From positions 2,826-66,825 of the forward strand of contig CANCJV010000013.1 in the NCBI GenBank assembly GCA_947378425.1: a stretch of 64,000 nt of DNA, given 5' to 3'. Positions 14,963 through 32,433 of this stretch are shown here, in pieces. Below the pieces are notes generated by a model. That model saw only the letters and a program-made list of their open reading frames with translations. It was not told where the DNA came from and searched no databases. A program made the translations under genes and the position numbers. Source of the stretch: Synechococcaceae cyanobacterium. Its GTDB lineage: Bacteria; Cyanobacteriota; Cyanobacteriia; PCC-6307; Cyanobiaceae. Each line of letters starts with the position of its first letter. Within the stretch, counting starts at the first letter, position 1.

Positions 14963-15482
14963 CAGTGTTGGCCTCTTTGTGTCTGGGGCTTCGCCGAGGG
15001 CGCCCAGCAATCATGCACAGGAACAATCTTATTCGAAGTTGAACAAGCCTACAGCTCTGGAGCTCAGGGCTCTACTGCAGGAAGACTCGTTCATTTGTCA
15101 GATTGGCTTCACCTTTACCATGGTTAGAAATACCTGAACCCTTAACCCACTGCCATTGATGATCTACTGCCTATGAAGCAGACGGGTACTACAGCGAAAC
15201 TGAAAGGCTAGTTTTCCATTTTAAAAAAGCCTGTGCTCACACTTGCTGCATTGGAACACCACCCTGCTGTCAACAGCGCCGCATCATCTGCAGTGCCTCA
15301 TCCTCAATTTTCTGTAGTTGCTCAAGACTGATCTGTGACTTGTTGGCGTGGATCTACACGGCGCTTCGACAAGGGGGTGCTGCAGATCTGCGCACTTGAC
15401 CTCCGCAACGTTCCTTGGTGTCAGAGGTGACACCGGCGCAACCGGCACACCGTCCAGGATCGTCCTAAACGACGATCGAGTG

Positions 15483-17831: not shown

Positions 17832-18299
17832 TCAGCCCAGCTCCCGCACCACATCAACAACGGCGGGGTCCCAGAGAATCTGGTAACTGCTGTGAGTGCC
17901 GCGGCAATACGGCAGTGCCTCGCCCCTTGGCCGGACGGTATCGGTGAGCTCCCATTCGCCACGCTGGTTGCTGATCTGCAGCCCGCAGGCGGCGAGGTGC
18001 AGGATCGTGTCCTTGGCCTTCATCCCCCTGGCTGCCGGCTTGCGGCTGCCCAGCACCAGGTTGTGGTGACCCGGCTCGTTGATGGTGGTCATGGACTGCT
18101 CGCCGCCAGGGGTGTCAGTTGAAATGACACCCTTCTCGTCTTCATCCAGGCGGCTCATGGCCTGACGGGGATGACCGATGCCCAGCACGCTGCAGACATC
18201 GGCGCCGACAAACCAGGGGGCGCTCTGCTCGTCGGTGAAGACACGGATCTGGCTGCCTTCGAAGTCAAAGGGAACCAGGGACGATTCGTTGCTGCTCAT
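17832..18299 (-). CDS. BRO-N domain protein (phage antirepressor-like)
   Basis: The internal ATG gives MSSNESSLVPFDFEGSQIRVFTDEQSAPWFVGADVCSVLGI...TINEPGHHNLVLGSRKPAA, the canonical Bro-N pattern. The longer 316-aa ORF extension is rejected. Confidence 0.8.
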   Translation of the reverse strand: MSSNESSLVPFDFEGSQIRVFTDEQSAPWFVGADVCSVLGIGHPRQAMSRLDEDEKGVISTDTPGGEQSMTTINEPGHHNLVLGSRKPAARGMKAKDTILHLAACGLQISNQRGEWELTDTVRPRGEALPYCRGTHSSYQILWDPAVVDVVRELG

Positions 18300-18577
18300 C
18301 GGATCGGACGCGGTGTGACAGGGATGGATCCGGCCGCGGCGGTGATCAAGGTGCGAGAGGGTGCTGGGGCCGGTGACAGTCGCGACGGCACCGGACCGGC
18401 GATCACCAGCAGGACCGTGCTCAGTTGCAGGAACACCACCAGCCAGAGCAGCCACAGGAGTTGCTGCAGGGTGCTCACCCGCACGGTGGTGGTGATCGGC
18501 CGGCGCGTGCGGCAGAAGGCCGGCAGCTGGGGACTCTTTCCCCTGTCGCCGAGGCGGACATTGGTGTGATGGGTCAT
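18296..18577 (-). CDS. Small single-pass membrane protein
   Basis: The 93-aa ORF exactly fills the SSB-BRO gap, with ATGA overlaps at both ends that suggest translational coupling. It has a hydrophobic helix LLWLLWLVVFLQLSTVLLVIAG. Confidence 0.55.
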   Translation of the reverse strand: MTHHTNVRLGDRGKSPQLPAFCRTRRPITTTVRVSTLQQLLWLLWLVVFLQLSTVLLVIAGPVPSRLSPAPAPSRTLITAAAGSIPVTPRPIR

Positions 18578-19122
18578 CAGAAGGGCACCTCCTCGTCACT
18601 GATGGGGCCATTGGTGGACCAGGCCGGGGCTGCCGGCGCTGCTGGTGTGGGGGCTCCAGCGGGTGCGCCCCATGTCGTCGCGCTCGAAATGCGGGAGCCC
18701 CCTGCAGCGGCGGTTGCCGTCTGAGACGCGGAGCTACTGACGGACTGGCCAGCGGAGAAGACAGCCAAGTCGGCGGCTCCATCGATCTGCTGCGTACCGT
18801 TCCTGCCCCCGCAGAGCTCCAGGCGATCGATCACCACCAGGGTCTTGCTGCGCACCTCGCCGCTGCTGCGGTCGGTCCATTGCTCGATCTCGAGCCGGCC
18901 GACGACCGCCACCTTGCTGCCTTTGCGTAGGTAGTCCCCCGCCACCTGGGCGGTCTTGCCCCACGCCTTGCAGTTCACCCAGAGCGGCTCCTGGTTCTGG
19001 CCATCCCGGGGCGGTCGGTTGACCGCCAGGGTGAACTCGCAGACGCAGCTGCCACTCTCAAAGAAGCGCAGCTCTGGATCCCGGCCGGCATTGCCGACCA
19101 GCACGATCAGGTTGATGCTCAT
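18577..19122 (-). CDS. ssb: Single-stranded DNA-binding protein
   Basis: It has an OB-fold N-terminus (MSINLIVLVGNAGRDPELRF...WVNCKAWGKTAQ), a Gly/Ala/Pro-rich linker and the acidic tail DEEVPF. Confidence 0.92.
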   Translation of the reverse strand: MSINLIVLVGNAGRDPELRFFESGSCVCEFTLAVNRPPRDGQNQEPLWVNCKAWGKTAQVAGDYLRKGSKVAVVGRLEIEQWTDRSSGEVRSKTLVVIDRLELCGGRNGTQQIDGAADLAVFSAGQSVSSSASQTATAAAGGSRISSATTWGAPAGAPTPAAPAAPAWSTNGPISDEEVPF

Positions 19123-19364
19123 GCCTCCACCTCCAGCGCCGAGCCGCTGCGGGCCTCGATGCGCTCCTGGACCGCCAGCAGTGACGGCAGGCCGATGAGT
19201 GGATGGGTGCGCACCAGTTCGTGCAGTGCTCCGCTCCAGGTGATGTTGTGCCTGCGGGCGAACGCATCGACCCGCTCAAAGGTGTCGTTGTTCATGGCGA
19301 TGGTCTTCTTGTGGTTGCCGATCCGCTGGCGCAGCGGCCGCGGTTTCTGGGGGGAGGTGCTCAT
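19119..19364 (-). CDS. Small protein, possible ribbon-helix-helix
   Basis: 81 aa. The segment KKTIAMNNDTFERVDAFARRHNITWSGALHELV is RHH-like. ATGA overlaps occur with both neighbours. Confidence 0.5.
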   Translation of the reverse strand: MSTSPQKPRPLRQRIGNHKKTIAMNNDTFERVDAFARRHNITWSGALHELVRTHPLIGLPSLLAVQERIEARSGSALEVEA

Positions 19365-20710
19365 GCCGCCGCCCCCGCGATTTGCTGGGAGCTCTCGCCG
19401 CCTTCGAGCTGACGGCGGCGCCTGGAGATCGCATTCCAGAGCCGCTCAGCGTTCTCGTCGTTGATCTGGCCTGCGCTGAGCAGCTGATTGACGCGTCCGT
19501 AGGCGCTGTCGAGTTCCAGCAGGGTGGCGATGCGTGGGATCTGGCGGAGGCCCACCTCCACAGGATCCAACTCAGGCTCTGGAGCTGGGGCAGGAGCTTG
19601 AGCCGAAGCTGGCTCAGGAGCTGGAGCTGGGCTTGGAGCCGAGGCAGCAGCGGCCTGGCTCCTGGTTCGCCGCGGTGCTGGCTGGGTGACTGCGTCAGAG
19701 GTTTCGTTGGCCTGCACCGAAAGGGCCTCCTGCTGCGCGGCTTGCTGCCCAGCTGAGGTGGTCGGCTCCGATTCAGCCCTGCTGGCGTCCACAAGCACGG
19801 CGTCGATGACCTCCGCCTTGGGCTCAGCGCCACCCCCATGGGGCAACTCGATGCGCCCATCGGCGCTGTTCTGGACTTGCTGCGGATCTTCCTTGTCTTC
19901 GCGATGGCGTAAAAGCTCGGGCACAGCGGCAGCACGGGAGCTCGCTGCAGGACGCCGGGCGGCGGGTTTTGCCGGCGCCGTGGCGGCTGGCCCTGCCGGC
20001 TCTTCAGCGACCTGGCTCCATGCCGTAGCCGCCAGAGTTGGGGCCTGGATTTCAGCCCCACTAACGTTGGCGCCGCCGGTTTCTCGGACCGTGACCGCCT
20101 CGATGTCGAGTGCTTCCTCCTGGGTGATCAACCCCAGGGCGATCTCCGGGCAGTAGACGTTGGACCACCAGGCGGCAGCGCGATAGCGCAGCATCTGGCC
20201 GGTCATCGTCTGCCACTTGCTGGTTTCGTTGCCCTGGCGGTCCTTGCGGCTCCACCAGCCCTCCTTGCGGGCCAGCTCCAGGGTGATGGTTTCTCCTTCC
20301 AGCACCTCTCCGGTGGCCTTATCGGTGGCCATCGCATAGCAACTGGTGGGCTTCTCCTTGTCGTCAAAGACAAAGCGCAGCGGCGAGAAGCGGCCGCTGG
20401 CATTGACCGTGGCGATCAGGAACTTGCTGCTCCAGGTCGGCCGGCCGTGGATCGGCGTCATGTTCTGCATCACCACCAGCGGTGAGAGCCGCATGCGACC
20501 GGCGATCTCCAGGGCGATCAGGCTGTTGGCCAGGCCCTGCTGTCCCTGGTAGTCCCTGGGCACCAGGGTGGAGGAGCACAGGGCCCGGGCCATCCGCTGG
20601 GCGGCGTCAAAGGCGGCGATGCCGCTGAACACCTGCAGCACCTCCCCCGCTGGGGCAAGGGCTGAGGACGGCGGTGCGTCAGCACCGGTGGAGAGAGTGG
20701 AGTCGTTCAT
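19361..20710 (-). CDS. recT: RecT/Red-beta-superfamily single-strand annealing protein with a long Ala/Pro-rich C-terminal extension
   Basis: The N-terminal ~230 aa follow the RecT pattern (GLANSLIALEIAGRMRLSPL...IHGRPTWS...MLRYRAAAWWSNVY). It is paired with a PD-(D/E)XK exonuclease gene. Confidence 0.7.
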   Translation of the reverse strand: MNDSTLSTGADAPPSSALAPAGEVLQVFSGIAAFDAAQRMARALCSSTLVPRDYQGQQGLANSLIALEIAGRMRLSPLVVMQNMTPIHGRPTWSSKFLIATVNASGRFSPLRFVFDDKEKPTSCYAMATDKATGEVLEGETITLELARKEGWWSRKDRQGNETSKWQTMTGQMLRYRAAAWWSNVYCPEIALGLITQEEALDIEAVTVRETGGANVSGAEIQAPTLAATAWSQVAEEPAGPAATAPAKPAARRPAASSRAAAVPELLRHREDKEDPQQVQNSADGRIELPHGGGAEPKAEVIDAVLVDASRAESEPTTSAGQQAAQQEALSVQANETSDAVTQPAPRRTRSQAAAASAPSPAPAPEPASAQAPAPAPEPELDPVEVGLRQIPRIATLLELDSAYGRVNQLLSAGQINDENAERLWNAISRRRRQLEGGESSQQIAGAAA

Positions 20711-21558
20711 TAGAAGAGGTCGATGGAATCCAAATCAATGCCTTCGGCTTCGGGAAGGCTGAAATCTTGGGAGACAGGACGAAACGCCTGGCGCCCGTGA
20801 CTCGGCCAGCTGCCTGTGGCCTGGCATTCGGCGATCCGCCGGAAGGCCTCCTCCCGGCGCTGCAGACCTTTTTGGAGGTCCTGCCCATCAAAGATGAGCA
20901 GGCTGCAGTCGATCGGTGCGGCCGGATCGGTGGGCCACTCAAAGGCGATCACGCCGGTCTCAACCGGCGGCTCACCATGGCGGTCCTCGTGGCCCAGGGC
21001 CAGGTGGGCCATTTGCAGGTCATAGGCCAGGTCCTTGGCCTGCCAGTAGAACTTCCGCGGCACGGCGCTGCGGGTCTTCTTGAGGTCGAACAGGCGGCCG
21101 TCGCTGGTGACGACATCGGGGAGGCAGCGGCAGGGCCGGCCTTCCTGGTCATCCCAGAAGTGGGGCTGCTGGCTAAGCGCTGGATCCAGCGCCGCCAGCA
21201 CCTCGCCCACCACCGGATCGGCCCGCAGGGCCTCACGGATGCGCTGGGCCTGCTCGACCATCTCGTTGCTCACCGGCGTGAGTCCGGCGGCCTCGGCTTC
21301 TGCGCAGTTGGCGGCACCGGCTTTGGTGTTGCGGGCGATCGATGGGTACGCGACGAACCGGCCATCGATCCGGAAGGGCGGCGTCAGCAAGGCATCGACC
21401 AGATCGCCCTTGACCATGTCGGCCGAGGGAACGAACCGCGCTGCCCCTGGCCCGAACCGATGGCTCCAGGTCCGCATCGTGCCGGTCACCGCAGCCTTGA
21501 GCGCCGTCGGGGACCAGGCGGGATGGCGGTGATACTCCGCCAGGGAGATGGTGCTCAT
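20710..21558 (-). CDS. PD-(D/E)XK exonuclease (RecE/exonuclease VIII-like, DUF3799-type)
   Basis: The N-terminus reads ISLAEYHRHPAWSPTALK. The motif PDVV...LFDLKKT fits D-(D/E)xK. It is coupled to recT. Confidence 0.65.
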   Translation of the reverse strand: MSTISLAEYHRHPAWSPTALKAAVTGTMRTWSHRFGPGAARFVPSADMVKGDLVDALLTPPFRIDGRFVAYPSIARNTKAGAANCAEAEAAGLTPVSNEMVEQAQRIREALRADPVVGEVLAALDPALSQQPHFWDDQEGRPCRCLPDVVTSDGRLFDLKKTRSAVPRKFYWQAKDLAYDLQMAHLALGHEDRHGEPPVETGVIAFEWPTDPAAPIDCSLLIFDGQDLQKGLQRREEAFRRIAECQATGSWPSHGRQAFRPVSQDFSLPEAEGIDLDSIDLF

Positions 21559-21890
21559 GGCGTGTCCTCCAGGCCCTGGCCCAGGACGATCCGCCGTGCC
21601 TCGATCAGCGAGGGACAGAGACCTGAATCAATCCCGCCGCCGTCGCGGTGCAGCAGCGTTGCCACGTAGCTCCCGCAGACGCTCTGGCGAAAGCTGATGG
21701 CGATGCCGTGGCCGGCCAGGGCCGCCAACGAGTCGGTCGTGATCGCCCTCCAGCGCTGCTGCCATTCAGCCAGGGCGGCAGAGAAGGAGGCCTGGATCAG
21801 GATGTACTGCTCCAGATCGGAGCGTTGCCATCCCCTGGAATCAGGGGACACGGAGAGGGAAGCCGGAGAGCCTCGTTCGTGTTGATTCAC
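21555..21890 (-). CDS. Hypothetical phage protein
   Basis: 111-aa ORF. It is the first gene of the coupled leftward operon and has an ATGA overlap with the exonuclease gene. Confidence 0.5.
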   Translation of the reverse strand: MNQHERGSPASLSVSPDSRGWQRSDLEQYILIQASFSAALAEWQQRWRAITTDSLAALAGHGIAISFRQSVCGSYVATLLHRDGGGIDSGLCPSLIEARRIVLGQGLEDTP

Positions 21891-22035
21891 CTTGCTGCAA
21901 TGAGGGACGCCAACGCTACCCCTGTGGTCATCTATTCGGGAACCCAGAACCTAGGTATTCCGATACCGCATAAATTGCCTTTCCGTAGCACTCGCGACGG
22001 CGACGGCAGCTGCGTTCTGGCACCCCGCTGCCTTT

Positions 22036-22719
22036 TCAGACTGGATTGCTCACCAGTTCGGTGGGCTCCAGCTCCGGGGCTACCTCCCGCACCCAGGCAT
22101 GCAACGCCTCGCGGGCGATCGGGACGATGGCCGGGCCCAGCCGCTCCCCAGCGAATAGCGCGTTTTCAATCGCCACGACCTGCTCCATCGGCAGATCTCC
22201 CGCCTTGCGCAACACCTGCATCGCGGCGGACACCGGCCGCACCCTGACCTGTTCGAGGACCTGATCAAACAGGCTGCGCAGCCGCTTGGTCTCAGCCTCG
22301 GCGTCGATCTCCTCCTGGCAGGGCCAGAGCTCAGTGGGCCCTTCCAGTTTGCCGATGTAGCAGGCGAACCAGTCCTCAGCGCCCCAGGGGCGGCCGTCGT
22401 CATGCAGCACCGGCCTGGCCCGCTGCACCCGATCGCGCAGCAACCGGTCCTTGATCGTGCCCCGCTCGTCTTGCGCCAGGCACTCGTTGAGCACCCCCAG
22501 CTGGATGAAGGTGCTGGGCTGGGGCTGCAACACCTTGCTGTTCTCCAGGTTTCCCCATTGGCCACCGGCCACCCGCAGCGGCCAGGGGATCAACCCTGGG
22601 CAGACCTTGGCCCAGTCCTGGGCGGTGGTGACGGTCCAGTCATTGCTCTTGCGCCAGTTCCGTAGGAACTTGCCGAACTGCACTCGGGCCGCATCGAGCT
22701 TGTCCTGCAGGCTCTGCAC
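22036..22719 (-). CDS. Putative XRE-like DNA-binding protein
   Basis: The N-terminal FGKFLRNWRKSNDWTVTTAQDWAKV...QWGNLENSKV resembles an HTH_XRE with an insertion. The rest is unknown. Confidence 0.45.
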   Translation of the reverse strand: MQSLQDKLDAARVQFGKFLRNWRKSNDWTVTTAQDWAKVCPGLIPWPLRVAGGQWGNLENSKVLQPQPSTFIQLGVLNECLAQDERGTIKDRLLRDRVQRARPVLHDDGRPWGAEDWFACYIGKLEGPTELWPCQEEIDAEAETKRLRSLFDQVLEQVRVRPVSAAMQVLRKAGDLPMEQVVAIENALFAGERLGPAIVPIAREALHAWVREVAPELEPTELVSNPV

Positions 22720-22868
22720 TGGGTTACCGTTTGGGAACCCTTAAAGTATGACTTGCTACCTGCGAAGCATCCAGCCCCAGGGGTCGGCTTCGTGACAGGC
22801 TGTTACGCCGCTTCGGTTGGCGGCTGGCTGGACAGGGACAGGGACTGCGGCAACCCCCACTGGGGTGA

Positions 22869-23213
22869 TCAGCTCAGCCTCAGCACCGCTGTGGCCTCAC
22901 CCACGCTCCTGGCCACACCGGCGTAGCCGCCAAACGCTTCCACCAGGGCAAGGAACGATCGCTGCTCCTCCCGCAACCTTCCGCCAGGGGCCTTCACCTC
23001 GATGGCGGTGAACACCGCCAGGGTCTGGCCCAGGTGCTCCGGGCCGATCAGCACCTGGCGCAGGCCGATCAGGTCGCTGCTGCCCTTGCACAACCCGTAG
23101 GTCACCAGCCGGCCGCGTTCATCGCGCAGGGCGCCGACGTTGTTGCGCCACAGCCGCACTGGACCGGTACCCAGCTCCAGCCGGATCCGCTGCTGTAGCT
23201 CCTGCTCGTTCAT
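22869..23213 (-). CDS. VRR-NUC domain nuclease
   Basis: The internal ATG gives MNEQELQQRIRLELGTGPVRLWRNNVGA...GSSDLIG...IEVKAPGGRLREEQRSF, the VRR-NUC pattern. An ATGA overlap occurs with the helicase stop. Confidence 0.75.
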   Translation of the reverse strand: MNEQELQQRIRLELGTGPVRLWRNNVGALRDERGRLVTYGLCKGSSDLIGLRQVLIGPEHLGQTLAVFTAIEVKAPGGRLREEQRSFLALVEAFGGYAGVARSVGEATAVLRLS

Positions 23214-25498
23214 GCCACCTGGCTCCAGTGGCCCCGCGTTTGGCGGCCCGCCAACACATGCCGTGCCCAGCCCTGGGGGTTCTTGAGGCCACGCTTGGTG
23301 CCCAGCGCAATCAGCTCCTCGAGGCTGCGGGCTTCTCCTTGCTCCCTCTTCTTTCTGCACCGGAGCTCCTGCTGGCTGATCTCCCGCAGCTCACCCTCCA
23401 CCGTGACCAGCTTCTGGCGCTCCGGGCGGAACACATGGCCGCACTCCGGGCAAAGGCTGAGCGTGCTGGCCATGGCGCAGAAACACTGCGGACAGGTCTT
23501 CACCGAGTGGGCCCTGGGTTGCTCCCGCTTCTTGATTCCGTCGAGGCTCCACTCCTGCGCGTCGAGGTGGTGGCCCAGCCGCTCGATGTTGCCGACGTGA
23601 TCGAGGATCACCGCCTCCTTCCCCGGCTGGGGCCGCAGGCAACGGCCGATCATCTGCAGATGCAGCCCCAGGCTCTGGGTAGGCCGCAGCAGCAGGCAGC
23701 CGCCCACCGAGGGCACATCCACGCCCTCGCCGATCAGGTTGCAGCTGGTCAGGACCTTCAGCTCCCCGGCCCCCAGCTGCTCCAGCAGCTGCCTGCGCGT
23801 TGCCGCATCCTGGGTGCCGTCGATGCTGGCCGCCTTTACGCCACGCTCGCTGAACGCTTCGGCCACCGCCTCGGCATGGGCGATCGAGCAGCAAAACGCA
23901 ATCGCCTTGCGGCCCGCCAGGTGGCGCTGGTAGTGGCTGACCGCATCGCCCAGGATGCGGCTACCGCCGAGGGCACCGGCGGCCTGGCGCAGATCGAAAT
24001 CCCCCATCCGTCGCCGCAGCCCCTGTGTCGTAAAACCGATCGGCGGGGCGTAGATCCGGGCAGGGGCCAGGTAGCCGTTGTCGCTCAGCCAGGCTGGTGT
24101 GGGGCCGAGCACCAGCTCGGAATACCAGGCGCCGAGTGGCCGGCCATCGCTGCGGCATGGTGTTGCCGTGACGCCGAGCACCTTGGCGCTGCAGAAATGT
24201 TTGAGCGCCTTCGCCCAGGTACCGGCGCTGGTGTGGTGGCAGTTGTGCACCAGGAGGCCAGCGGCAAAGTAGTTGTGGTGCTGCTCAACTTCGATGTTGT
24301 ACACATAATTTCCCTCACGCAACTCTGCAGATCCGCCTCGACCTGTTGGTTCGTAAACCTCAACACGCTCCACCCGATCGAGGCAAGGAACTCCTCCTTC
24401 TTCCTGTCCAGCATCTGGCGCTGGATCGCGCCATGGGATGGGCCATCCACCTCGATGCCGATCCGCAGCTCCTGATGGCCGATATCCAGCTTGTAGCAAG
24501 TCGGGTAGCCACTGCCGCGCGGCATCGCCGTTCGGACCACCACTTCCATCGGCCAGCCCAGGGCATCCGCCAGACGCTGCTGATGCCTGGTGGGTCCACG
24601 GCCATTGCCGCCGCGTACCAGTGGCTGATGCTTGTTGCGCCGCAGGGTTGCACTCACCTTTTCCCTGCTCCCTTGCCGCTGCATCGGGTTGTTGTCCCGC
24701 ATGCGTTGCGATGCGTACTGCCGATTGGTTCTCGCCATCACCACGGCTTTTTGCTGGCTCAAAGAGGCGCCGGAGCACTGCCGGCTGCAGTAAACCCGGC
24801 CTCTTGCTCTTAGTTGGTCGCGCTTGACCTTCGTGATCAGAGCAACTAAGACTCCGCACCAATGGCACGGCGCAGAGTTCGTCTCCAGGACGCAGGATGC
24901 CTGCGGGGATGTAGCCATGGTTGACCGTAAAGAACGGATGGGAGAGGGTGGTTTCGATGCTTCTGCCGGAGGTTGTCGTGACACGCACCATCCAGCGGGG
25001 CATCGGATTGCAGAACAGGCGCTTGACGCGGCCGCTGGTGATCTGACCGCTCTGGTGGTCAAAGCAGCTCACGACATCGCCGACCTGCAGGGTTTCGATC
25101 GGCCTGCCGTCAACCGGTGTTCCGGCTGGAAAGCATTCATCAACCACCAGCAGCTGAAAGTGCTCCGGCTTGAGCAAATCCAGCCGCCTGGCCAGGGTGG
25201 CGACCGAGGCCACCTGCACCGGCGCCCGCAGATTCATCGAGCGGCCCGAGGCGATCAGACCGTGCTCCACCCCCAGCGCCGCCAGGGAGCGTGAGGCCTG
25301 CTCCAGCAACTCGGCCCGGTGCACCAGCACGGCGATGCGGTTGCCGCGGGCTGCCGTTTGCTGGGCGATGTGGCTGAACACCACCGTCTTGCCACCACCG
25401 GTGGGGAGGACAAACAGCACGGCGCGGTGCCCCTCCATGAAGGCAAGCCGGACCCGCTGCACGGCCTCCAATTGGTAAGGACGCAGGGCGATGGACAT
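23210..25498 (-). CDS. SF2 DEAD/DEAH-box DNA helicase precursor containing an intein in motif II
   Basis: Motif I is LPTGGGKT. Motif II VVDE|...|CHH is split by 298 codons. Motif III is GVTATP and motifs V-VI are present (GEGVDVP, QMIGRCLR). A C-terminal zinc ribbon reads CPQC...CPECG. Confidence 0.88.
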   Translation of the reverse strand: MSIALRPYQLEAVQRVRLAFMEGHRAVLFVLPTGGGKTVVFSHIAQQTAARGNRIAVLVHRAELLEQASRSLAALGVEHGLIASGRSMNLRAPVQVASVATLARRLDLLKPEHFQLLVVDECFPAGTPVDGRPIETLQVGDVVSCFDHQSGQITSGRVKRLFCNPMPRWMVRVTTTSGRSIETTLSHPFFTVNHGYIPAGILRPGDELCAVPLVRSLSCSDHEGQARPTKSKRPGLLQPAVLRRLFEPAKSRGDGENQSAVRIATHAGQQPDAAAREQGKGECNPAAQQASATGTRRQWPWTHQASAASGGCPGLADGSGGPNGDAARQWLPDLLQAGYRPSGAADRHRGGWPIPWRDPAPDAGQEEGGVPCLDRVERVEVYEPTGRGGSAELREGNYVYNIEVEQHHNYFAAGLLVHNCHHTSAGTWAKALKHFCSAKVLGVTATPCRSDGRPLGAWYSELVLGPTPAWLSDNGYLAPARIYAPPIGFTTQGLRRRMGDFDLRQAAGALGGSRILGDAVSHYQRHLAGRKAIAFCCSIAHAEAVAEAFSERGVKAASIDGTQDAATRRQLLEQLGAGELKVLTSCNLIGEGVDVPSVGGCLLLRPTQSLGLHLQMIGRCLRPQPGKEAVILDHVGNIERLGHHLDAQEWSLDGIKKREQPRAHSVKTCPQCFCAMASTLSLCPECGHVFRPERQKLVTVEGELREISQQELRCRKKREQGEARSLEELIALGTKRGLKNPQGWARHVLAGRQTRGHWSQVA
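24085..24918 (-). CDS. Nested Vsr/DUF559-like homing-endonuclease ORF in the +1 frame of the intein (meaningful part about 24307-24918)
   Basis: Frame-B translation begins MATSPQASCVLETNSAPCHWCG...YCSRQC (zinc finger). It continues with NPM...SREKVSATLR (NUMOD-like) and then GYPTCYKLDIGHQELRIGIEVDGPSHG...DRKKEEFLASIGWSVLRFTNQQVEADLQSCVREI (Vsr/DUF559 fold pattern). The tail after 24307 is probably non-functional read-through. Confidence 0.6.
   Translation of the reverse strand: MATSPQASCVLETNSAPCHWCGVLVALITKVKRDQLRARGRVYCSRQCSGASLSQQKAVVMARTNRQYASQRMRDNNPMQRQGSREKVSATLRRNKHQPLVRGGNGRGPTRHQQRLADALGWPMEVVVRTAMPRGSGYPTCYKLDIGHQELRIGIEVDGPSHGAIQRQMLDRKKEEFLASIGWSVLRFTNQQVEADLQSCVREIMCTTSKLSSTTTTLPLASWCTTATTPAPVPGRRRSNISAAPRCSASRQHHAAAMAGHSAPGIPSWCSAPHQPG
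24242..25135 (-). mobile_element. Intein (298 codons) inserted in the DE-CHH box
   Basis: Block A is CFPAGTPV and block B is TLSHPFFT. Blocks F/G are NYVYNIEVEQHHNYFAAGLLVHN followed by a +1 Cys. The central ~190 codons in this frame are low-complexity. Confidence 0.8.
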
Positions 25499-25531
25499 GG
25501 CACGCCGACAGCACTTCGCCAGAGTTTAGGA

Positions 25532-25551
25532 CTAGCAGAAAATGCTGCTAG
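25532..25551. promoter_or_regulatory. Inverted repeat (7-bp arms, 6-nt spacer) in the divergent control region
   Basis: ctagcag-aaaatg-ctgctag lies between the leftward helicase operon and the rightward RHH/primase operon. Confidence 0.4.
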
Positions 25552-25579
25552 GCTTTTGCGGTAGCACTCCACTGTCATC

Positions 25580-25765
25580 ATGAAGCGCGTACAGCTCCAG
25601 CTCCCCGAGGCCGTCGTCGCCTGGATTGACCGCAACGCCGACGGCATCGAAAGCCGCGCCTCCTTTGTCAGGCGCACCCTGGTACAGGTGATGCGCGGCG
25701 ACGAGCGCAGGCTGCCCCCCGCCTCCAGTGACTCGATCTCCAGCGGTGGGGCTTCCCTGCGCTGA
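25580..25765 (+). CDS. Ribbon-helix-helix (CopG/Arc-type) protein
   Basis: The segment MKRVQLQLPEAVVAWIDRNADGIESRASFVRRTLVQV shows the RHH pattern. Its stop overlaps the primase ATG. Confidence 0.6.
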   Translation: MKRVQLQLPEAVVAWIDRNADGIESRASFVRRTLVQVMRGDERRLPPASSDSISSGGASLR

Positions 25766-28440
25766 TGGCGAGCGATGTGCTGCTTGCTGCTGATGGCCAG
25801 TGGCCCCGGCTTCTGGCGGAACTGGCCGGCCTGTCGCCGGAGCAGCTGCAGGACCGGCACCAGCCCTGCCCCGCCTGCGGCGGCACCGATCGCTACCGCT
25901 GGGACCGTGACGACGGCCCCGGCGGCTGGTTCTGCAACCAGTGCGGTGGCCGTGAGCGCAGCGGCGGTGGCGGCAGCGGCATCGATCTGCTGCTGCGCGT
26001 GACCGGCTGGGATTTTGCGACCGCCGCCCGGCGGATCGAGGCCCAGCTCGGGCTGGGACAACCATCACCGCCACCGGCCTCGGCACACCCTCCTGCTGCA
26101 GAGCAGGGATCGGAGCCCCATGCCGCCTGGGATGGCCTGCTGGCTTCTGGGCAACCCACACCGCCCCCTTTGCCGGCAGCGGGGTCGACGTTCCAGCTGG
26201 CGCTACTCGATCAGCAGGCAGCGCCGCTATCTACCGGCAGCCCCTACGCCTACTCCGATCACCAGCGCGTCAGCCGCGTTGATCGATCCGGCGGCAAGGT
26301 CTTCTACGCCAACCACCGCACCGACCAGGGCTGGCAGCGCGGCGCCGGTCCCGATCCCTGGCCCATGTACCAGTGGCCAGCCCTGCTGCAGGCCACCGGC
26401 CGCTGGCTGATCGAACTTGAGGGAGAGAAGTGCGCCGATCTGGTGATCCGCGGTGGTTTTCTCGCCACCACCCAACCGGGCCACGCCCACAGCAGCCCCC
26501 AGATCGCCGAGCGCTACCGCGCCCTCCAGCAGGCCGGTGTAGCCGGCATCGTCTATCTCTCTGATCACGATGAGCAGGGCCAGCGTCGCGCCCGCCAAGT
26601 GATCAAGGCCGCAGCCGAGGTGGGCCTGCCGCTGCTGCACCTGCCGGCTGGCGAGATCTGGGCCGGCCTGCCGCAGGGCGGTTCGGTTGATGACGCTCCT
26701 GGCCTACTGGGTGAGCGGATCGGCGTGATTCTTCTCGCTGCACGGGCCGCCTACAGAAGGATGCAAGAAGTGGCCGCCGGCAGCAGCCAGGCTCCCTCCA
26801 AGCCGGCCCCCGCCCCCAGAGCAACACCTGTGGCGCGGCCGTTTCTCTGTCTTGGCTTCGATGGCGACGGCTACTACTACCAGCCCCGCTCCACCGGGCT
26901 GGTGGTGCGCCTGGCATCTTCCTCCCATGGCGGCATGAACCTCTGCCGTCTGGCGCCGCTGGCCTACTGGGAGACCATTTTCCCCTCCAAGAACGGTGTG
27001 AACTGGACAGCCGCCGCATCGGATCTCTTCTGCCAGCAGGCGGCGGTGGGCATGTTCGATGCCTGCAACCTCCGGGGCCGCGGTGCCTGGTGGGACCAGG
27101 GCCGCTCGCTGCTCCACCTCGGTGATCGGCTGGTGGTGGATGGCCGCAGCCAGCCGATCAACGAGGTCTTCCCATCACGCTTCCACTACCAACGAGGACC
27201 GGCCCTGCATGGCCCCGGTGACGCGCCTCCCCTGTCGGATGAAGAGGCCTTCACGGTGCTGGCCATCGCTGAGCGCTTCCACTGGGAGATTCCCGCCTCC
27301 GCCCTGCTGCTGGCGGGCTGGGTGGCCCTGGCCCCCATCTCCGGAGTGCTCTCCTGGCGCCCCCACATCTGGCTCACGGCCGCAGCTGGTTCCGGCAAGT
27401 CCGCCATCCTTGAGCGCTTTGTCGGCGTGCTGCTGGGAGATCTCGCCTTCCCGGTGGTCGGCAACACCACCGAGGCCTTCATTCGCCAGGCCCTGCGCTG
27501 CGATGCCCTGCCGGTGGTGATCGATGAGGCTGAGAGCAACGAGAAGGTGGACCAGCAGCGGATCCAGCAGATCCTCGCCCTGGCCCGCTATTCCTCCAGC
27601 GAGACGCGGGCCTCGATCGGCAAGGGCTCTGCGGCGGGGGAGGTGCAGCGCTTCCAGGTGCGCTCGATGTTCCTGCTCAGCAGCATCTCTACTGCCCTCA
27701 AGCAAGGCGCCGATCGTCGCCGCTTCTCCCAGCTCACCCTGCGCCAACCCACCGAACTGCCTTCGGAGCTGCGGCAGGCCCACTGGGATGGCTTGAACCG
27801 TGATCTCGCTGAGCTGATCACCGAGGACTTCGCAGCACGGCTGATCGCCCGCATCGTTGCTCTGATTCCGGTGATCCGCAGCTCGATCACTGTTTTCTCT
27901 GGGGTGTGCAGCAGGCACTTCCAGTCCCAGGCTATGGGGGATCAGTACGGCGCCCTGCTGGCCGGCGCCTGGGCTCTGCAGTCCTCAAGAGTGCCAACGA
28001 CCGCCGATGCCCAGGCGCTGATCGCCGGGGTCGACTGGAGCAGCTACGAGCAGAGCAACGGCCAGCCGGATGAGCGCCGCTGCCTCAACCGGATCCTGCA
28101 GCACCAGCTGCGCGTTGAAACCGAGGACCGGGTGCTGACGCGCACCATCGGTGAGCTGGTGGAACTGCTCAGCAGTGCCCCTTCCCCGCTGGAGGCGGTG
28201 TCGGGCCGCCATGCCGAGGAGCTGCTCTCCAGACACGGGATGCGGGTCCAGGAGGGAAGGCTGCTGGTCAGCAACACCTCGGAGGCCATCGCCCGGATCC
28301 TGGCCGACACGGCCTGGGCGACCAGCTGGGGCACCATCCTGTCCCGGTTACCTGGGGCGATACCCACCAGCAACCCGGTGCGCTTCAAGGGGGCGGGCGC
28401 CAAGGATCGCGCCTGCAGCATCCCCCTCGACAGCCTCTGA
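25765..28440 (+). CDS. Bifunctional DNA primase / P-loop helicase (P4-alpha-like)
   Basis: It has the primase zinc-binding domain HQPCPACGGTDRYRWDRDDGPGGWFCNQCG and a Toprim-like region (IELEGEKCADL...YLSDHDEQG). Walker A is AAAGSGKSA and Walker B is VVIDEAE. Confidence 0.85.
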   Translation: MASDVLLAADGQWPRLLAELAGLSPEQLQDRHQPCPACGGTDRYRWDRDDGPGGWFCNQCGGRERSGGGGSGIDLLLRVTGWDFATAARRIEAQLGLGQPSPPPASAHPPAAEQGSEPHAAWDGLLASGQPTPPPLPAAGSTFQLALLDQQAAPLSTGSPYAYSDHQRVSRVDRSGGKVFYANHRTDQGWQRGAGPDPWPMYQWPALLQATGRWLIELEGEKCADLVIRGGFLATTQPGHAHSSPQIAERYRALQQAGVAGIVYLSDHDEQGQRRARQVIKAAAEVGLPLLHLPAGEIWAGLPQGGSVDDAPGLLGERIGVILLAARAAYRRMQEVAAGSSQAPSKPAPAPRATPVARPFLCLGFDGDGYYYQPRSTGLVVRLASSSHGGMNLCRLAPLAYWETIFPSKNGVNWTAAASDLFCQQAAVGMFDACNLRGRGAWWDQGRSLLHLGDRLVVDGRSQPINEVFPSRFHYQRGPALHGPGDAPPLSDEEAFTVLAIAERFHWEIPASALLLAGWVALAPISGVLSWRPHIWLTAAAGSGKSAILERFVGVLLGDLAFPVVGNTTEAFIRQALRCDALPVVIDEAESNEKVDQQRIQQILALARYSSSETRASIGKGSAAGEVQRFQVRSMFLLSSISTALKQGADRRRFSQLTLRQPTELPSELRQAHWDGLNRDLAELITEDFAARLIARIVALIPVIRSSITVFSGVCSRHFQSQAMGDQYGALLAGAWALQSSRVPTTADAQALIAGVDWSSYEQSNGQPDERRCLNRILQHQLRVETEDRVLTRTIGELVELLSSAPSPLEAVSGRHAEELLSRHGMRVQEGRLLVSNTSEAIARILADTAWATSWGTILSRLPGAIPTSNPVRFKGAGAKDRACSIPLDSL

Positions 28441-28450
28441 ACCCCCGTCC

Positions 28451-28902
28451 GGGACGCTGGGCGGGACGGCCAGAACCGTTGCGCTGCAAACGATGGGACG
28501 CTGGGACGGTATTGGCTGCATGCCCAGGCCGGCCGCGCGCACGCGTGCCGGTTACCTCTTGGTGCGCCTAGTTGGTCACCCAGCAGGCCCGGGACGCCTG
28601 GGACGCTTGGGACGCTCGCCTTTTGGCTGAAAACGCCTGTGCCGCAATGGATCAGGCGATTTTGGCGCCTGGGACGCTCAGCACACACACAGACCCCTCC
28701 AGAAGACAAAGGAGCTCGGGCAGAAAAACAGTTGCCTAGAGGACCACCAAGCGGTAACCGGATTATTCGGTAGGTCTCTAATTAATTATCTATCTGTATA
28801 TATGGATTTGATTGATTGGGGCCTCCAGATCCCTGTTGCTGCAAAGGTTTTAGGCTGGGACACCCACCGTCCCACAGCGTCCCAGAGCGTCCCACCCGTC
28901 CC
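28451..28902. repeat. Iteron cluster flanking an AT-rich segment: candidate phage replication origin
   Basis: The GGGACG core (extended TGGGACGCT) starts at 28451, 28463, 28495, 28503, 28591, 28600, 28609 and 28671 on the + strand. Inverted copies (cgtccc) start at 28869, 28879, 28889 and 28897. The AT-rich stretch taattaattatctatctgtatatatggatttgattgatt lies at ~28778-28818. Confidence 0.6.
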
Positions 28903-29055
28903 GCCTAGCCGTGCAGCCGCCTATTGCGGCCTGACGGCCACAGGGTCTTGACGCAGGGACCGATTGCACCGAATCTGGATTCATTCATTTCGCGAACCCG
29001 AATTCGTGGTTTTGCTCTTCCTGGCCCCTGATGCGCCCAAGCGGGTGGCCCGACG

Positions 29056-29604
29056 GTGACGGCCGCCCAGGCTGCTGCCGTGCCTCCCCAGGCCGATCCG
29101 ATCGAGGATCTGCGCTTGGCCGCCTCCCTCGAGGACGAGAACGGCCAGCCACTGCTGCAGCCCGAGGGCACCGATCCCTCCCGCCCGATCGGCAAAGGCA
29201 ACCCACCCCGGCGACGTCGCGGCATCGCGAGCAAGAACGCTCCAAGGCCCTCTCGCATGGAGGTGGAGCGGCGGGTGGCGATGGCCCAGCTGTGGGTAGC
29301 GCAGCGCCTGCCGCTGGTGCACATCCGCGAAAACGCTCGAAATGACTGGGGGGTGAGCAACATCACCACGATCAACGCCTACCTCAACACCGCCCGCGAG
29401 CGGATGGTGGAAGAGCTGATTTCTGACCGCCGCCGCCACCAGGCTGAGCAGATCTTTGCACTGAACGACTGCGCCAGGCGAGCCATGGACGCTGAGCAGT
29501 TCAGTGCTGCGGTGGGTGCCTTCCGGGTGATTGCCGAGATCGGCGGGCTGCTGCGGGCCCCCCTCAAGGCACCGGATCCCCATGGGGGCGGGGCCAAGGG
29601 CTGA
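29056..29604 (+). CDS. Putative terminase small subunit
   Basis: The call rests on position (immediately upstream of TerL and coupled to it) and on a basic N-terminal region. No motif was recognised. Confidence 0.4.
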   Translation: MTAAQAAAVPPQADPIEDLRLAASLEDENGQPLLQPEGTDPSRPIGKGNPPRRRRGIASKNAPRPSRMEVERRVAMAQLWVAQRLPLVHIRENARNDWGVSNITTINAYLNTARERMVEELISDRRRHQAEQIFALNDCARRAMDAEQFSAAVGAFRVIAEIGGLLRAPLKAPDPHGGGAKG

Positions 29605-31298
29605 TGGGCCGCATCGCCTCCACCCTCCGCCCCCCGGTTCCCAGCCTGCCCAGTGCGGGTGGGCTGCTGCTGGACCCTGCGACGGACCTCTGGGCTGACT
29701 GGGGCCTGCTGGGTGTTCCCGACCCGGACCGGGTGACAACGATCGACAAACAACGGAAATTCGGTGAGTTCATCCTCCAGGCCTTCCCCAGCTTCCAGTT
29801 CAGCCGCTTCTCCGAGCTGCTGATCGGCCTTCTCCAGCAGGTGGCCGATGGCCAGCTGACGCGACTGATCGTCTGCTGTCCACCGCGGGCTGGTAAATCC
29901 GCTCTTGTGTCGCGCCTGTTTCCCGCCTACTGGGTGAGCAGGCACCCAGAGCTGTTCTGCGCCATTGCCAGCTACTCAGCCGAGCTGGCCTACGCCCACT
30001 CCCGTGAGGCGCGCCACTACTACCGGAGCACCGGTCACGCCCTCTCCAAGGACTCCGCGGCGGTGGGCAACTGGCTTACGCCGCAACGGGGCGGCTGCAT
30101 CGCTGCCGGTGTGCGCGGCCCGTTCACAGGGAAGGGTTACAACCTCGGGATCATCGATGACCCCTACAAGGGTCCGGAGGATGCCAAGTCGGCCCTGCAG
30201 CGCGAGCGGCTGATCGACTGGCTCAAGAGCGTTTGGTTCACCCGCGCTGAACCCGGCCAGAGCAGCGACGGCCAGTGGCTGCCAGCGGCCCAGGTGGTGG
30301 TGCAGACCCGCTGGGACCACCAGGACATGATCGCCTGGCTCCTCGCGCAAGAGTCAGAAGAAAACCCCGAGCACTGGACGGTGCTCAACCTGCCCGCCAT
30401 CGCCGAGCCGATCAGCATCGCGATGCCGATCCCGCCCACCTGCACCCGCGTTCCGGATTGGCGCCAACCCGGTGAACCCCTATGCCCGGAGCGGGTGCCG
30501 CTGGAGGTGCTGCAACGGATCCGTACCCGGCTGGGCTCCTATTGGTGGAACGCCCTGTACCAACAGCGCCCCAGCCCTGCTGAGGGTCTGCTGTTCCGCA
30601 AGGACTGGATCCAGGCACCATTGCCCACCGCACCTGGCCAGCCCCGCCGCTTTGCGCCCCTGGTGCTGAGCTGTGACCTGAGCTTCAAGGACGGCAAGGA
30701 CAACGACGCCTGCGGCTTTGCCCTGCTGGGCTTGCTGGAACCCCAGCGCCACCTGGCGGTAGAAGCGCGGCGGCAGGGTCTGGTGCTGGCCACGAACGCC
30801 GCTGGTGCTCAACGACCCGGGCAGCACCCCGGCGAGGGTGTTAATCACCCTGATCCCTGGGCGGAGCTGCAGATCGAAACGCTCTGGGCCCACCGCCAGC
30901 GGCTTGATCTGCCGGGGGTAATCAAGTTCCTGATGGCGTCTCTCGCCTCCCTGGAGCGCCAGGGCCTCCGCCCCCACGCCGTGCTGATTGAGGACGCCGC
31001 CAACGGCCCGGCGGTCTGCCAGCTGCTGAGGCGCCAGGTACCGGGGCTGATCGCCATTCCGCCCAAAGGCAGCAAGGCCTCCCGCGCCCATGCCGTTGCT
31101 CCCCTGGTTGAGGCGGGCCAGGTGCGCTTCCACCGACGCAGCGAGTCGCTGATCGAGGAGCTGCTGGCCTTCTCGCCCCGCGGCGGGATCGACGACCAGG
31201 TGGATGCCTTCTGCCAAGGGGTGCTCTGGATCGAGGGGCAGTACTGGCGCGGGCGGGGCCACAGCTCGGCGCCGCTGCCGATGGTCTTTAGTCGCTGA
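29604..31298 (+). CDS. terL: Terminase large subunit
   Basis: Walker A-like CCPPRAGKSALV and Walker B-like GIIDDPYK are present. The C-terminal nuclease region reads LIEDAANGPAVCQLL...PKGSKASRAHAVAPLVEAGQVRF. Confidence 0.85.
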   Translation: MGRIASTLRPPVPSLPSAGGLLLDPATDLWADWGLLGVPDPDRVTTIDKQRKFGEFILQAFPSFQFSRFSELLIGLLQQVADGQLTRLIVCCPPRAGKSALVSRLFPAYWVSRHPELFCAIASYSAELAYAHSREARHYYRSTGHALSKDSAAVGNWLTPQRGGCIAAGVRGPFTGKGYNLGIIDDPYKGPEDAKSALQRERLIDWLKSVWFTRAEPGQSSDGQWLPAAQVVVQTRWDHQDMIAWLLAQESEENPEHWTVLNLPAIAEPISIAMPIPPTCTRVPDWRQPGEPLCPERVPLEVLQRIRTRLGSYWWNALYQQRPSPAEGLLFRKDWIQAPLPTAPGQPRRFAPLVLSCDLSFKDGKDNDACGFALLGLLEPQRHLAVEARRQGLVLATNAAGAQRPGQHPGEGVNHPDPWAELQIETLWAHRQRLDLPGVIKFLMASLASLERQGLRPHAVLIEDAANGPAVCQLLRRQVPGLIAIPPKGSKASRAHAVAPLVEAGQVRFHRRSESLIEELLAFSPRGGIDDQVDAFCQGVLWIEGQYWRGRGHSSAPLPMVFSR

Positions 31299-31307
31299 GG
31301 GGTCGCC

Positions 31308-31958
31308 ATGGCACGGGTCATCGCCTGCATCGCCACACGCCTCGACCAGCCCCCCGCGGGGGGGCGGCCCCATGGCGGCCTCTGTCGTGCCAGCCAGCTG
31401 CCCCTGCCGTTTAGGCCGCCCGTGGTGGCGTCCTGTATACCGAGGCAGCAGCGGCTTCCCAAGCCCCCCAGGCCGGCCTGCAGTCAGAAGGCGGTGCAGC
31501 TGGTGCTCGCCTATCCCAGCCGACCGCGCCGCCACAGGCCGGTCAATCCCCACGCTGCTGCCAACGCCCTGGCGCTGCAGCACCGGGACATCGCCCAGAC
31601 GGTTGCGGCCAACATCTCGCGCCGCACCGGCCATCCAAGGGAAGACCTGGAGCAGATCGCCATGCTCGGCATCCTTCAGGCCGCCCGGCGCTTCTCACCC
31701 GAACGTGGATCGTTCCGGCCCTATGCCCGTACCTATGCCAACGGGGAGGTGTATCACTACCTCCGCGACAAGGGCTTTCTGATCAAGGTGCCGGCGAGCT
31801 GGCGGGAGCTGCATGCGCGGGGGCAGAAGTTGCTGAGGCTGGGGTCTGCGCCTGCTGAAGTACCCGAGCGGTTGGGGGTCAGCAGGGAGCGGTGGCGGGA
31901 GATCGCTGGGGCTTGCAGTCAGCGGGTGGTGGCGATGGAAGTTGTGGAGCAGGATTGA
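31308..31958 (+). CDS. Sigma-70-family-like factor with regions 2 and 3 but no recognisable region 4
   Basis: The segment EDLEQIAMLGILQAARRFSPERGSFRPYARTYANGEVYHYLRD matches regions 2.1-2.4, and LGVSRERWREIAG is a region 3-like HTH. The ORF ends where the lower-G+C insert begins. Confidence 0.65.
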   Translation: MARVIACIATRLDQPPAGGRPHGGLCRASQLPLPFRPPVVASCIPRQQRLPKPPRPACSQKAVQLVLAYPSRPRRHRPVNPHAAANALALQHRDIAQTVAANISRRTGHPREDLEQIAMLGILQAARRFSPERGSFRPYARTYANGEVYHYLRDKGFLIKVPASWRELHARGQKLLRLGSAPAEVPERLGVSRERWREIAGACSQRVVAMEVVEQD

Positions 31959-32008
31959 CGACCCAGATCAAGGGCTCGTGGCCGCAGGATTATCCACGCC
32001 GCTGGGCT

Positions 32009-32341
32009 TCATCGCGAGTCCATTTCGTCGAGTGGTTCGACAGCGGGCGTGTCATCGATCCAATAGTGCTCGACGGAACAACTCTTCACGAACGCCTCCA
32101 TTCCGGAAGGGATCACAGGCGTGTTCCATTTCTGCCCCGCGAAGGCAATCAGAGCATCTTCGTTACACCAACGGCTGATCATCGCGTAGGTGTTCGGCGC
32201 CCATCGCGTTGGCATGCCGATCTCGCACGACAGATTGCCAGGCGCTTGCTTTACGGCGTCGACAGACCGAGTCCTAAACCCGGCCTCAAAGGCGGATCGC
32301 GTAACTGGATCGATCTCGACACGAAAGATGCGAATGATCAC
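32009..32341 (-). CDS. Antibiotic-biosynthesis-monooxygenase (ABM/Dabb-fold)-like protein
   Basis: 110 aa. The pattern MIIRIFRVEIDP...YAMISRWCNEDALIAFAG..W...EHYW is typical of the ABM family. Confidence 0.55.
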   Translation of the reverse strand: MIIRIFRVEIDPVTRSAFEAGFRTRSVDAVKQAPGNLSCEIGMPTRWAPNTYAMISRWCNEDALIAFAGQKWNTPVIPSGMEAFVKSCSVEHYWIDDTPAVEPLDEMDSR

Positions 32342-32433
32342 AGGAAGACTGGCGAACGCTGCCCCTGAGTGGCAGGCAAGGATTAAAAGGTGCGGAAGTT
32401 AATCATTGGTGGCCTGTCCACTCAAGGGGTTAG

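Follow-up and report, generated by a model that had tools for sequence, protein, structure and literature searches.

A 64,000-nucleotide (nt) stretch of a contig from a Synechococcaceae cyanobacterium (CANCJV010000013.1, assembly GCA_947378425.1, positions 2,826 to 66,825), referred to here as the window, carries on its minus strand a helicase gene of superfamily 2 (SF2) that is interrupted in motif II by a class-1 intein. Inside the intein, in the +1 frame relative to the helicase, lies a second open reading frame (ORF) whose product is a predicted homing endonuclease. It is highly probable that the locus represents a contiguous, cis-splicing intein in a prophage-type helicase together with an independent, Vsr-like endonuclease gene in the +1 frame, and that this combination is an old trait of the family. 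The coordinates of all features are listed in Table 1.

Translation of the helicase ORF reads ...QLLVVDE-CFPAGTPVDGRP...TLSHPFFT...NYVYNIEVEQHHNYFAAGLLVHN-CHHTSAGTW, where the hyphens mark the two splice junctions; the intein begins after VVDE with CFPAGTPV and the C-extein resumes with CHHTS. The precursor of 762 amino acids (aa) is matched by the Pfam profiles ResIII (E 1e-24), Helicase_C (E 9e-14) and PF14890 Intein_splicing [score 43.7 bits, above the curated cut-off of 35.8; E 3e-11]. When the intein is removed in silico, a 464-aa helicase remains and the ResIII match improves to E 5e-30. The splicing residues can be read directly [C1 at 25135, TLSH, LLVHN and the +1 Cys at 24241], and they are conserved in 57 non-redundant relatives. 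The insertion is precise and in frame: subtracting the 298 residues of the intein from 762 leaves 464, and the intein-less alleles are exactly 464 aa long and align without gaps. The position of the intein and its blocks A, B, F and G with the +1 Cys are therefore as proposed in an initial annotation that had been made from the sequence alone.

Between the two Hint lobes the host frame runs through a linker that the initial annotation had described as low-complexity Arg/Pro/Gly/Ala sequence, and this description proved accurate. In an AlphaFold2 model of the whole precursor, which was used solely to assess the disorder of the linker, residues 209-373 of the host frame have pLDDT values (predicted local distance difference test) of 22-29 and no secondary structure, and no nuclease match was found by Pfam in the translation of the linker.

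It is the +1 frame that encodes a predicted nuclease, as the initial annotation had suggested. Pfam assigns the ORF between 24085 and 25062 to PF04480 DUF559 [39.2 bits against a cut-off of 20.6, E 7e-10], and more than 200 homologues of the conserved 205-aa product were found at E ≤ 1e-3, most of them 190-260 aa long and the best 50-54% identical over more than 90% of the length. In an alignment of 38 homologues, the zinc-binding Cys residues and an NPM...R.KVS.TLR...GGNG segment are conserved, and residues E156, D158, H162 and D171 are invariant across all 38 sequences, including that of the window. A profile of this alignment searched against the Protein Data Bank (PDB) matches 3HRL (DUF559, E 2e-8) and 3R3P (the catalytic domain of I-Bth0305I, E 0.007). 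The AlphaFold2 model of the endonuclease has a mean pLDDT of 90.7, and its top three Foldseek matches in the PDB are 3R3P_B, 3R3P_A and 3HRL [probability 1.0, TM-target 0.57-0.59, E 6e-3 to 1e-2]. For the N-terminal region, the zinc finger that had been proposed is borne out by its four conserved Cys columns. Of the proposed NUMOD-like segment, the conserved motif stands and helices are predicted at residues 46-94, but no NUMOD profile was matched in Pfam at E ≤ 0.1. We regard the +1-frame product as a predicted homing endonuclease of the Vsr-like/DUF559 type (EDxHD-type, similar to I-Bth0305I) in which a zinc ribbon and a helical DNA-binding region precede a nuclease core.

The two coding regions do not abut but overlap. 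At the 5' end, the endonuclease ATG at 24918 lies inside the Hint-N region, as noted initially, 44 nt before Hint-N ends at 24875. At the 3' end, Hint-C starts (LDRVERVEVYEPTG) at about 24382, and the conserved endonuclease domain continues for some 79 nt more, to 24304. The nucleotides of the Hint-C start also encode the endonuclease segment GWSVLRFTNQQVEADLQSCVREIM, and the same overlap occurs in relatives, with the last 25-45 or so codons of the endonuclease doubling as the first beta-strands of Hint-C in the host frame. In many family members a conserved endonuclease tail, ...CVQTVLSTISK or ...STTSKLR..TTTSP.AS, corresponds to Hint blocks F and G read in the +1 frame. In 56 non-redundant viral relatives the endonuclease ends within Hint-C, its stop falling at one of a few discrete offsets between -8 and -50 nt relative to the end of the intein, and only in the clade of the window does the ORF have no stop in Hint-C and extend 157 nt into the C-extein. 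The 3' end of the endonuclease gene and Hint-C are truly dual-coding. The idea that the frame switches twice, exactly at the domain boundaries, is thus not upheld, and the nesting of the endonuclease in a mini-intein, while real, goes beyond mere nesting.

Table 1. Features of the window, with positions counted from its first nucleotide; hyphens within motifs mark splice junctions.
Feature	Position	Strand	Basis and remarks
SF2 (ResIII/DEAD + Helicase_C) helicase precursor ORF, 762 aa	23210-25498	minus	predicted spliced product 464 aa; intein-less homologues exactly 464 aa
Class-1 intein, 298 aa/894 nt, in helicase motif II (DE-C...HN-CHH)	24242-25135	minus	Cys1, block B TLSH, terminal HN, +1 Cys (24239-24241)
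Hint N-terminal lobe (CFPAGT...RPGDEL), host frame	24875-25135	minus	tblastn and HMM host-frame matches in relatives
Host-frame linker, 164 codons, Arg/Pro/Gly/Ala-rich, stop-free	24383-24874	minus	amino acids unconserved, predicted disordered
Hint C-terminal lobe (LDRVERVEVYEPTG...NYVYNIEVEQHHNYFAAGLLVHN), dual-coding with endonuclease C-terminus (GWSVLRFTNQQVEADLQSCVREIM...)	24242-24382	minus	both frames match family profiles
Endonuclease ORF, +1 frame relative to helicase	24085-24918 (open from 25062)	minus	ATG 24918, stop 24085-24087; conserved 205-aa part 24304-24918
Four-Cys zinc-ribbon-like N-terminal motif (CHWC...CSRQC)	24775-24867	minus	Cys columns conserved in 38-sequence alignment; beta-hairpin at residues 15-26 in model
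Vsr-like/DUF559 nuclease core, invariant E156, D158, H162, D171	24304-24558	minus	Pfam DUF559, PDB profile matches 3HRL/3R3P, Foldseek
N-extein side of divergent patch at insertion site	25136-25198	minus	DNA comparison with intein-less allele
C-extein divergent patch at insertion site, 60-73% nt identity against 93-97% elsewhere	24125-24241	minus	comparison with intein-less allele
Bro-N	17832-18782		prophage-like block
RecT	19361-20710		prophage-like block
PDDEXK/DUF3799 nuclease	20710-21558		prophage-like block
VRR-NUC	22869-23360	minus	longest ORF; overlaps helicase 3' end by about 150 nt
Primase with zinc ribbon	25765-28440		prophage-like block
Terminase large subunit	29604-31298		prophage-like block
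DUF4055 portal-like protein	33555-35174		prophage-like block
Type I restriction enzyme R subunit (HSDR_N, SWI2_SNF2, T1R_D3)	3833-6802		low-GC part

The same frame arrangement is found in other assemblies and in distant relatives. Two metagenome-assembled genomes (MAGs) of Cyanobacteriota from different projects [L084, JBKDPV010000008, and L085, JAPLIB010000089 from Lac Pavin] carry helicase genes that are 93% identical to that of the window over 2289 nt with zero indels, and the +1-frame ATG and the +1-frame stop are common to all three alleles. Additional 762-aa alleles in the protein database (P0121-P0124) are 76-91% identical, and a divergent locus (L001), in which the endonuclease is 54% identical, has the same layout. 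For the wider survey, the genome scan took one genome per species, and the scans based on the endonuclease alignment covered 80 viral contigs out of 332 confirmed relatives and 80 of 98 genome or MAG contigs. With the Hint lobes of the window as tblastn queries, both lobes were found in 65 viral loci. All 65 show a +2 offset of the Hint frame from the endonuclease frame, an unbroken host ORF and no host-frame stops across the endonuclease gene, against 3-30 in the third frame. Hidden Markov models (HMMs) of Hint that were then built from these loci revealed the nested layout with the same frame relation in 136 of 164 loci, and an endonuclease in the Hint frame in none of the 164. Deduplication left 127 unique inteins, 200-399 aa long, on phage contigs and MAGs with a GC content of 0.25 to 0.68; all but two, which are fractured, lack host-frame stops (125/127). 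About 115 of them are inserted at DE-C(H/Q)x or DE-S, and a few at neighbouring points of motif II (DEAH-C, DEGH-C, DEHHR-C and others). Endonuclease identities in these relatives go down to about 30%, and the MAGs are assigned to many phyla. These results indicate that the nested out-of-frame layout is an old, stable and widely distributed family trait and not a local accident; the initial annotation had suggested that it would be a snapshot of an endonuclease invading a mini-intein, and this does not agree with the spread of identities, GC contents and phyla.

A cultured isolate, Ktedonobacter racemifer DSM 44963 (L091, NZ_ADVG01000004, about 2.36 Mb), also carries the nested architecture, with an endonuclease 47% identical to that of the window, and may offer material that is amenable to experiments. 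In L001 (2806-6099), automatic gene calling has split the helicase: its output contains just the endonuclease and a C-terminal helicase fragment of 404 aa. The architecture is therefore probably under-annotated in public data.

To assess the openness of the host frame, we permuted synonymous codons within each endonuclease gene and counted the host-frame stops. For the window a mean of 4.4 stops is expected and none is observed, with 0.3% of the shuffles free of stops; most low-GC loci would be expected to have 8-15, and none of their 2000 shuffles was stop-free. Zero host-frame stops are present in all 57 non-redundant viral loci, and by this measure the openness of the host frame is under selection. 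Across the same 57 loci, nucleotide diversity at endonuclease codon positions 1, 2 and 3 is 0.42, 0.36 and 0.59, and position 3 is the most diverse throughout endonuclease residues 41-179, which indicates purifying selection in the endonuclease frame and not in the host frame. In the Hint-C overlap, diversity is lower at all three positions (0.29/0.22/0.44, then 0.11/0.24/0.20), and only there does position 3 drop. The substitutions between the window and L084 can be counted in the same way. The exteins show 58 synonymous and 35 non-synonymous substitutions in the host frame, while the linker shows 7 synonymous and 27 non-synonymous in the host frame and 17 of each in the endonuclease frame. 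The host-frame linker is unconstrained at the amino-acid level apart from avoiding stops. Two constraints are visible in these comparisons, one by which the synonymous sites of the endonuclease keep the host frame free of stops, and one that acts on every codon position of the overlap zone and keeps it conserved. The shuffles, the stop-free relatives and the codon-position diversity all favour the earlier proposal of an endonuclease gene nested out of frame in a host frame that is kept open.

The start of the endonuclease gene is conserved in position across the family. In 57 loci the start codon is ATG (54 loci) or GTG (three), mostly 2-20 codons before the zinc finger and usually 250-300 nt into the intein, at the end of Hint-N. 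A GGAG, GAGG or AGGA motif, resembling a Shine-Dalgarno (SD) sequence, precedes the start in 22 of the 57, compared with 15% at control positions, and at several loci it coincides with host-frame codons of the Gly-Asp/Glu type at the Hint-N end. At many loci (L013, L023 and L009, for example) the endonuclease frame has a stop just upstream of its ATG.

Intein-less alleles of the same helicase exist at close range. In P0125 and P0126, both 464 aa long, the exteins are 92% identical to those of the window and the motif is DEAHH; in the Cyanobium protein P0134 (464 aa) the motif is DECHH and the exteins are 94% identical to those of the intein-bearing P0124. Between the window and P0122 the intein is 91% identical and the exteins 83%. 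Compared with the empty DEAHH-type allele L164, the helicase gene of the window has a DNA identity of 93-97% over most of its length; around the insertion site, over about 60 nt on the upstream side and about 120 nt on the downstream side, the value is 60-73%. Such a divergent patch at the junctions looks like what co-conversion during homing would leave. Taken together, the intein-less alleles, the incongruence between intein and exteins and the divergent patch suggest that the element moves by homing. The empty insertion site is present in two forms, DECHH in P0134, with flanks like those of the intein-bearing alleles, and DEAHH in P0125/P0126. The DECHH form could reflect either precise loss of the intein or a donor lineage, and the DEAHH form may differ in its susceptibility to the endonuclease.

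Not all members of the endonuclease family are nested in an intein. At L002, a free-standing endonuclease gene (P0007, 51% identical) sits directly upstream of an intein-less homologous helicase gene (34% identity, motif DESHH) and overlaps its start by 4 nt, which suggests that this endonuclease family is associated with this helicase gene even when there is no intein. On the same contig (L002 4001-6294, ENA contig_52401) a DnaB-type helicase gene follows the intein-less helicase. Other endonuclease loci (among them L042, L077 and L090) show no Hint signal. In two MAGs the gene is fractured [L124, Lutibacter, about 2169-3144, and L129, Lacinutrix, about 3136-4117]. There a stop closes the N-terminal part of the helicase, which includes Hint-N; next comes the endonuclease gene, in the +1 frame, and an ATG (MRQKK or MRQQK) lies inside the endonuclease gene, upstream of the Hint-C match; the host frame contains 19-23 stops and the insertion point is DEHHR-C or DESHT-C. 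The initial annotation had pointed to a link between Vsr-like endonucleases and fractured genes with split inteins, which is correct (PMC2677866) and which these two relatives illustrate. A Planctomycetota MAG (L152) has a shortened intein of 200 aa (about 600 nt, at about 3300-3900) at DEAH-C; its +1-frame endonuclease lacks the central DNA-binding region, with the zinc finger fused directly to the nuclease core, and both frames are open. This locus looks like a stage of endonuclease decay in which both frames are kept open.

We propose that the system would work as follows. With no stop in the host frame of the window, ribosomes translating the helicase would read through the segment and produce a disordered loop of about 164 residues, which would be excised with the intein to leave the 464-aa DECHH helicase. 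The endonuclease would have a translation start of its own, with ribosomes initiating internally at the ATG at 24918, close to where Hint-N ends. Judging from the distribution of the alleles, it would cut intein-less helicase alleles, and repair would copy the intein, the endonuclease and short flanking tracts of the exteins. Several points weigh against this account. Splicing, independent translation and cleavage are all steps that we infer. The ATG at 24918 in the window has no SD-like motif, a sigma-70 promoter scan of 23000-25800 gave no site, and RNA folding around this ATG is not unusual (z = -0.5). In the cyanobacterial clade the endonuclease reads on for 72 codons past the conserved 205 aa, to 277 aa in all; 52 of these codons lie outside the intein, and this C-terminal extension could impair the enzyme. 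The Foldseek E-values for the nuclease core are modest (6e-3), and the Hint lobes are modelled with low confidence in the AlphaFold2 precursor model because few rows of the alignment bear an intein. Among the three close alleles, the ratios of synonymous to non-synonymous substitutions in the endonuclease frame (17:17 and 11:13) reflect only moderate constraint.

Indels in G+C-rich homopolymer runs are common assembly errors, and a gggaaatt run lies near one of the supposed frame switches, which would fit an ordinary bifunctional intein disguised by sequencing or assembly error or by two recent compensating frameshifts; the initial annotation had also considered two boundary frameshifts. The data refute this reading, which is improbable in the extreme: the two independent MAG assemblies contain the same gene without an indel in 2289 nt, which makes three assemblies in agreement, the frame offset is identical in 136 loci with no in-frame endonuclease in any, and the coding regions of Hint-C and the endonuclease overlap by about 80-140 nt, so that no single frame can hold both complete domains. 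A canonical bifunctional intein was also rejected on the disorder of the host-frame linker, its lack of a nuclease match and the absence of an in-frame relative among the loci scanned. A fractured gene with a split intein of the type described by Dassa et al., in which two polypeptides splice in trans and the endonuclease gene lies between their genes, is the organisation of L124 and L129. It is most unlikely for the window, which has no host-frame stop between the Hint lobes and where the openness of that frame is selected; a fractured or naturally split intein was rejected here on the count of zero host-frame stops. Programmed +1 ribosomal frameshifting would instead deliver the endonuclease as a fusion to the N-extein and Hint-N, which is formally possible in the window, where the open stretch of the +1 frame begins at 25062, upstream of the ATG, and the ATG lacks an SD-like motif. 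We consider this very unlikely as well, given that in many relatives (L013, L023 and L009 again) the endonuclease frame is closed by a stop within a few codons upstream of the ATG, that the position of the start is conserved and enriched for SD-like motifs, and that the family has free-standing members, about 200 aa long. Near the ATG of the window neither a slippery site nor a stimulatory structure was noticed, although slippery sites were not systematically searched.

The remaining alternative accepts the overlapping genes and holds that in the cyanobacterial clade the endonuclease is a decaying or inactive passenger, retained through the overlap and the need for an open frame, while the intein persists by obligate splicing. 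The loss of the family-typical stop, with a read-on that ends 157 nt inside the C-extein, would fit this explanation, as would the lack of an SD-like motif at the ATG, the moderate constraint among close alleles and the existence of a relative with an internally deleted endonuclease (L152). However, all invariant catalytic and zinc-binding residues are intact and the fold is predicted with confidence; a far larger fraction of the substitutions is synonymous when read in the endonuclease frame than when read in the host frame; the ATG and the stop are both conserved in the three alleles; and the incongruence, together with intein-plus and intein-minus alleles at 94% extein identity, suggests recent mobility. 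We judge an inactive passenger to be improbable, though worth keeping in mind, and prefer the reading of an independent endonuclease gene in a cis-splicing intein.

The helicase is part of a prophage-like block (17832-35174) with a GC content of about 65-70%, whose other members are given in Table 1. At L164 the beginning of the VRR-NUC gene overlaps the helicase stop by 4 nt, and the true start of VRR-NUC in the window is therefore probably at about 23213. From the names of the homologues and a match to the helicase of cyanophage S-LBS1, the block probably derives from a Cyanobium-type picocyanobacterium. The GC content of the window steps from about 47-55% (1-15000) to about 65-70% (16000-64000), and the low-GC part may be a foreign island or a defence locus adjoining the prophage-like block. 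A tRNA scan found no tRNA gene in the window and hence no clue to an integration site.

Inteins in which the endonuclease lies in another frame or antisense have been termed non-canonical, and Gorbalenya 1998 is cited for them in 10.1101/2025.01.02.630785. In their survey of actinophages, Gosselin, Arsenault and Gogarten describe antisense VSR-like, antisense LAGLIDADG and frame-3 EndoVII-like endonucleases in inteins, and state that VSR-like endonucleases were otherwise reported only with split inteins (10.1101/2025.01.02.630785). A cyanobacterial dnaX intein has an out-of-frame LAGLIDADG endonuclease, an arrangement called a rarity (10.64898/2026.09.14.751524). The initial annotation had considered a contiguous intein with an out-of-frame endonuclease unusual; the category is described, but it is rare in these reports. 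The hosts of non-canonical inteins are DNA polymerase, minor capsid, terminase, thymidylate synthase and dnaX genes (10.1101/2025.01.02.630785; 10.64898/2026.09.14.751524). The helicase intein shares with them a contiguous structure, an endonuclease outside the Hint frame, an open host frame, purifying selection in the endonuclease frame and an origin read as the invasion of a mini-intein by a free-standing endonuclease gene, and like the dnaX intein it adjoins a Walker B motif. It differs in that its endonuclease is sense-strand, +1-frame and Vsr-like/DUF559, that the host site is motif II of an SF2 helicase, that the functional overlap with Hint-C is conserved, and that the family is represented by 127 unique loci, in contrast to the reported rarity.

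Dassa et al. (2009) described split inteins with a free-standing Vsr-like or GIY-YIG gene between the halves, which overlaps the start of IntC by 6-69 bp, in genes for gp41, NrdA/J, IMPDH, DnaE, ligase and terminase, with no SF2 helicase among the hosts (PMC2677866). The Vsr-like superfamily, the phage context and the overlap of the endonuclease 3' end with the IntC start are common to that system and the present one, and L124 and L129 are truly fractured; in the window, by contrast, the host frame is stop-free, the intein is contiguous and presumably splices in cis, and the host is an SF2 helicase. I-Bth0305I (3R3P) is the prototype of the Vsr-like EDxHD homing endonucleases, a family that came to light in the fractured genes reported by Dassa et al. 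(PMC3239194, PMC2677866) and described with N-terminal NUMOD-like motifs; it resides in a group I intron in recA (PMC3239194). It is the top structural match of the window endonuclease, with which it shares a Vsr-like core with E, D, H and D, an N-terminal DNA-binding region followed by a C-terminal nuclease, and an association with phage mobile elements. The sequence similarity is weak (profile E 0.007), and the zinc ribbon of the window family is undescribed for I-Bth0305I. The ShiLan-type insertion in phage methylase genes (PMC11855218) similarly hides an endonuclease in an alternative frame of a stop-free host, but it involves no intein, the insert stays in the host protein and the endonuclease is HNH. 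In full-text literature searches we found no description of a sense-strand Vsr-like family in a contiguous helicase intein. The general kind is already known; what we consider new is that a Vsr-like gene is overprinted, on the sense strand and in the +1 frame, onto a contiguous helicase intein, together with its wide distribution and the conserved functional overlap with Hint-C.

We tentatively suggest, as a possibility that falls somewhat short of an even chance, that these loci form a large undescribed clade of "entangled" inteins, in which the C-terminus of the nuclease and the essential first strands of Hint-C share nucleotides, that this sharing explains their persistence, and that the clade spans four states. 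If this is true, neither the intein nor the endonuclease could be cleanly deleted without killing the helicase, and entanglement would explain why the element persists across phages of many phyla instead of passing through the usual cycle of endonuclease decay. The four states (free-standing, nested, internally deleted and fractured) would then be a living series for the model of Dassa et al. The coexistence of contiguous, fractured, free-standing and truncated relatives means that the family bears on the acquisition of endonucleases and on the origin of split inteins. What recent preprints present as a rarity is the normal state in a widespread family of phage helicase inteins, with 127 unique examples in two scans. 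The arrangement is a clean natural example of about 600 nt of overlapping coding sequence in which three regimes can be told apart, namely a frame that only avoids stops, a frame constrained at the protein level and a short zone where both frames are constrained. Such genes are often split or overlooked by gene callers, and the family may supply new compact inteins and EDxHD-type endonucleases.

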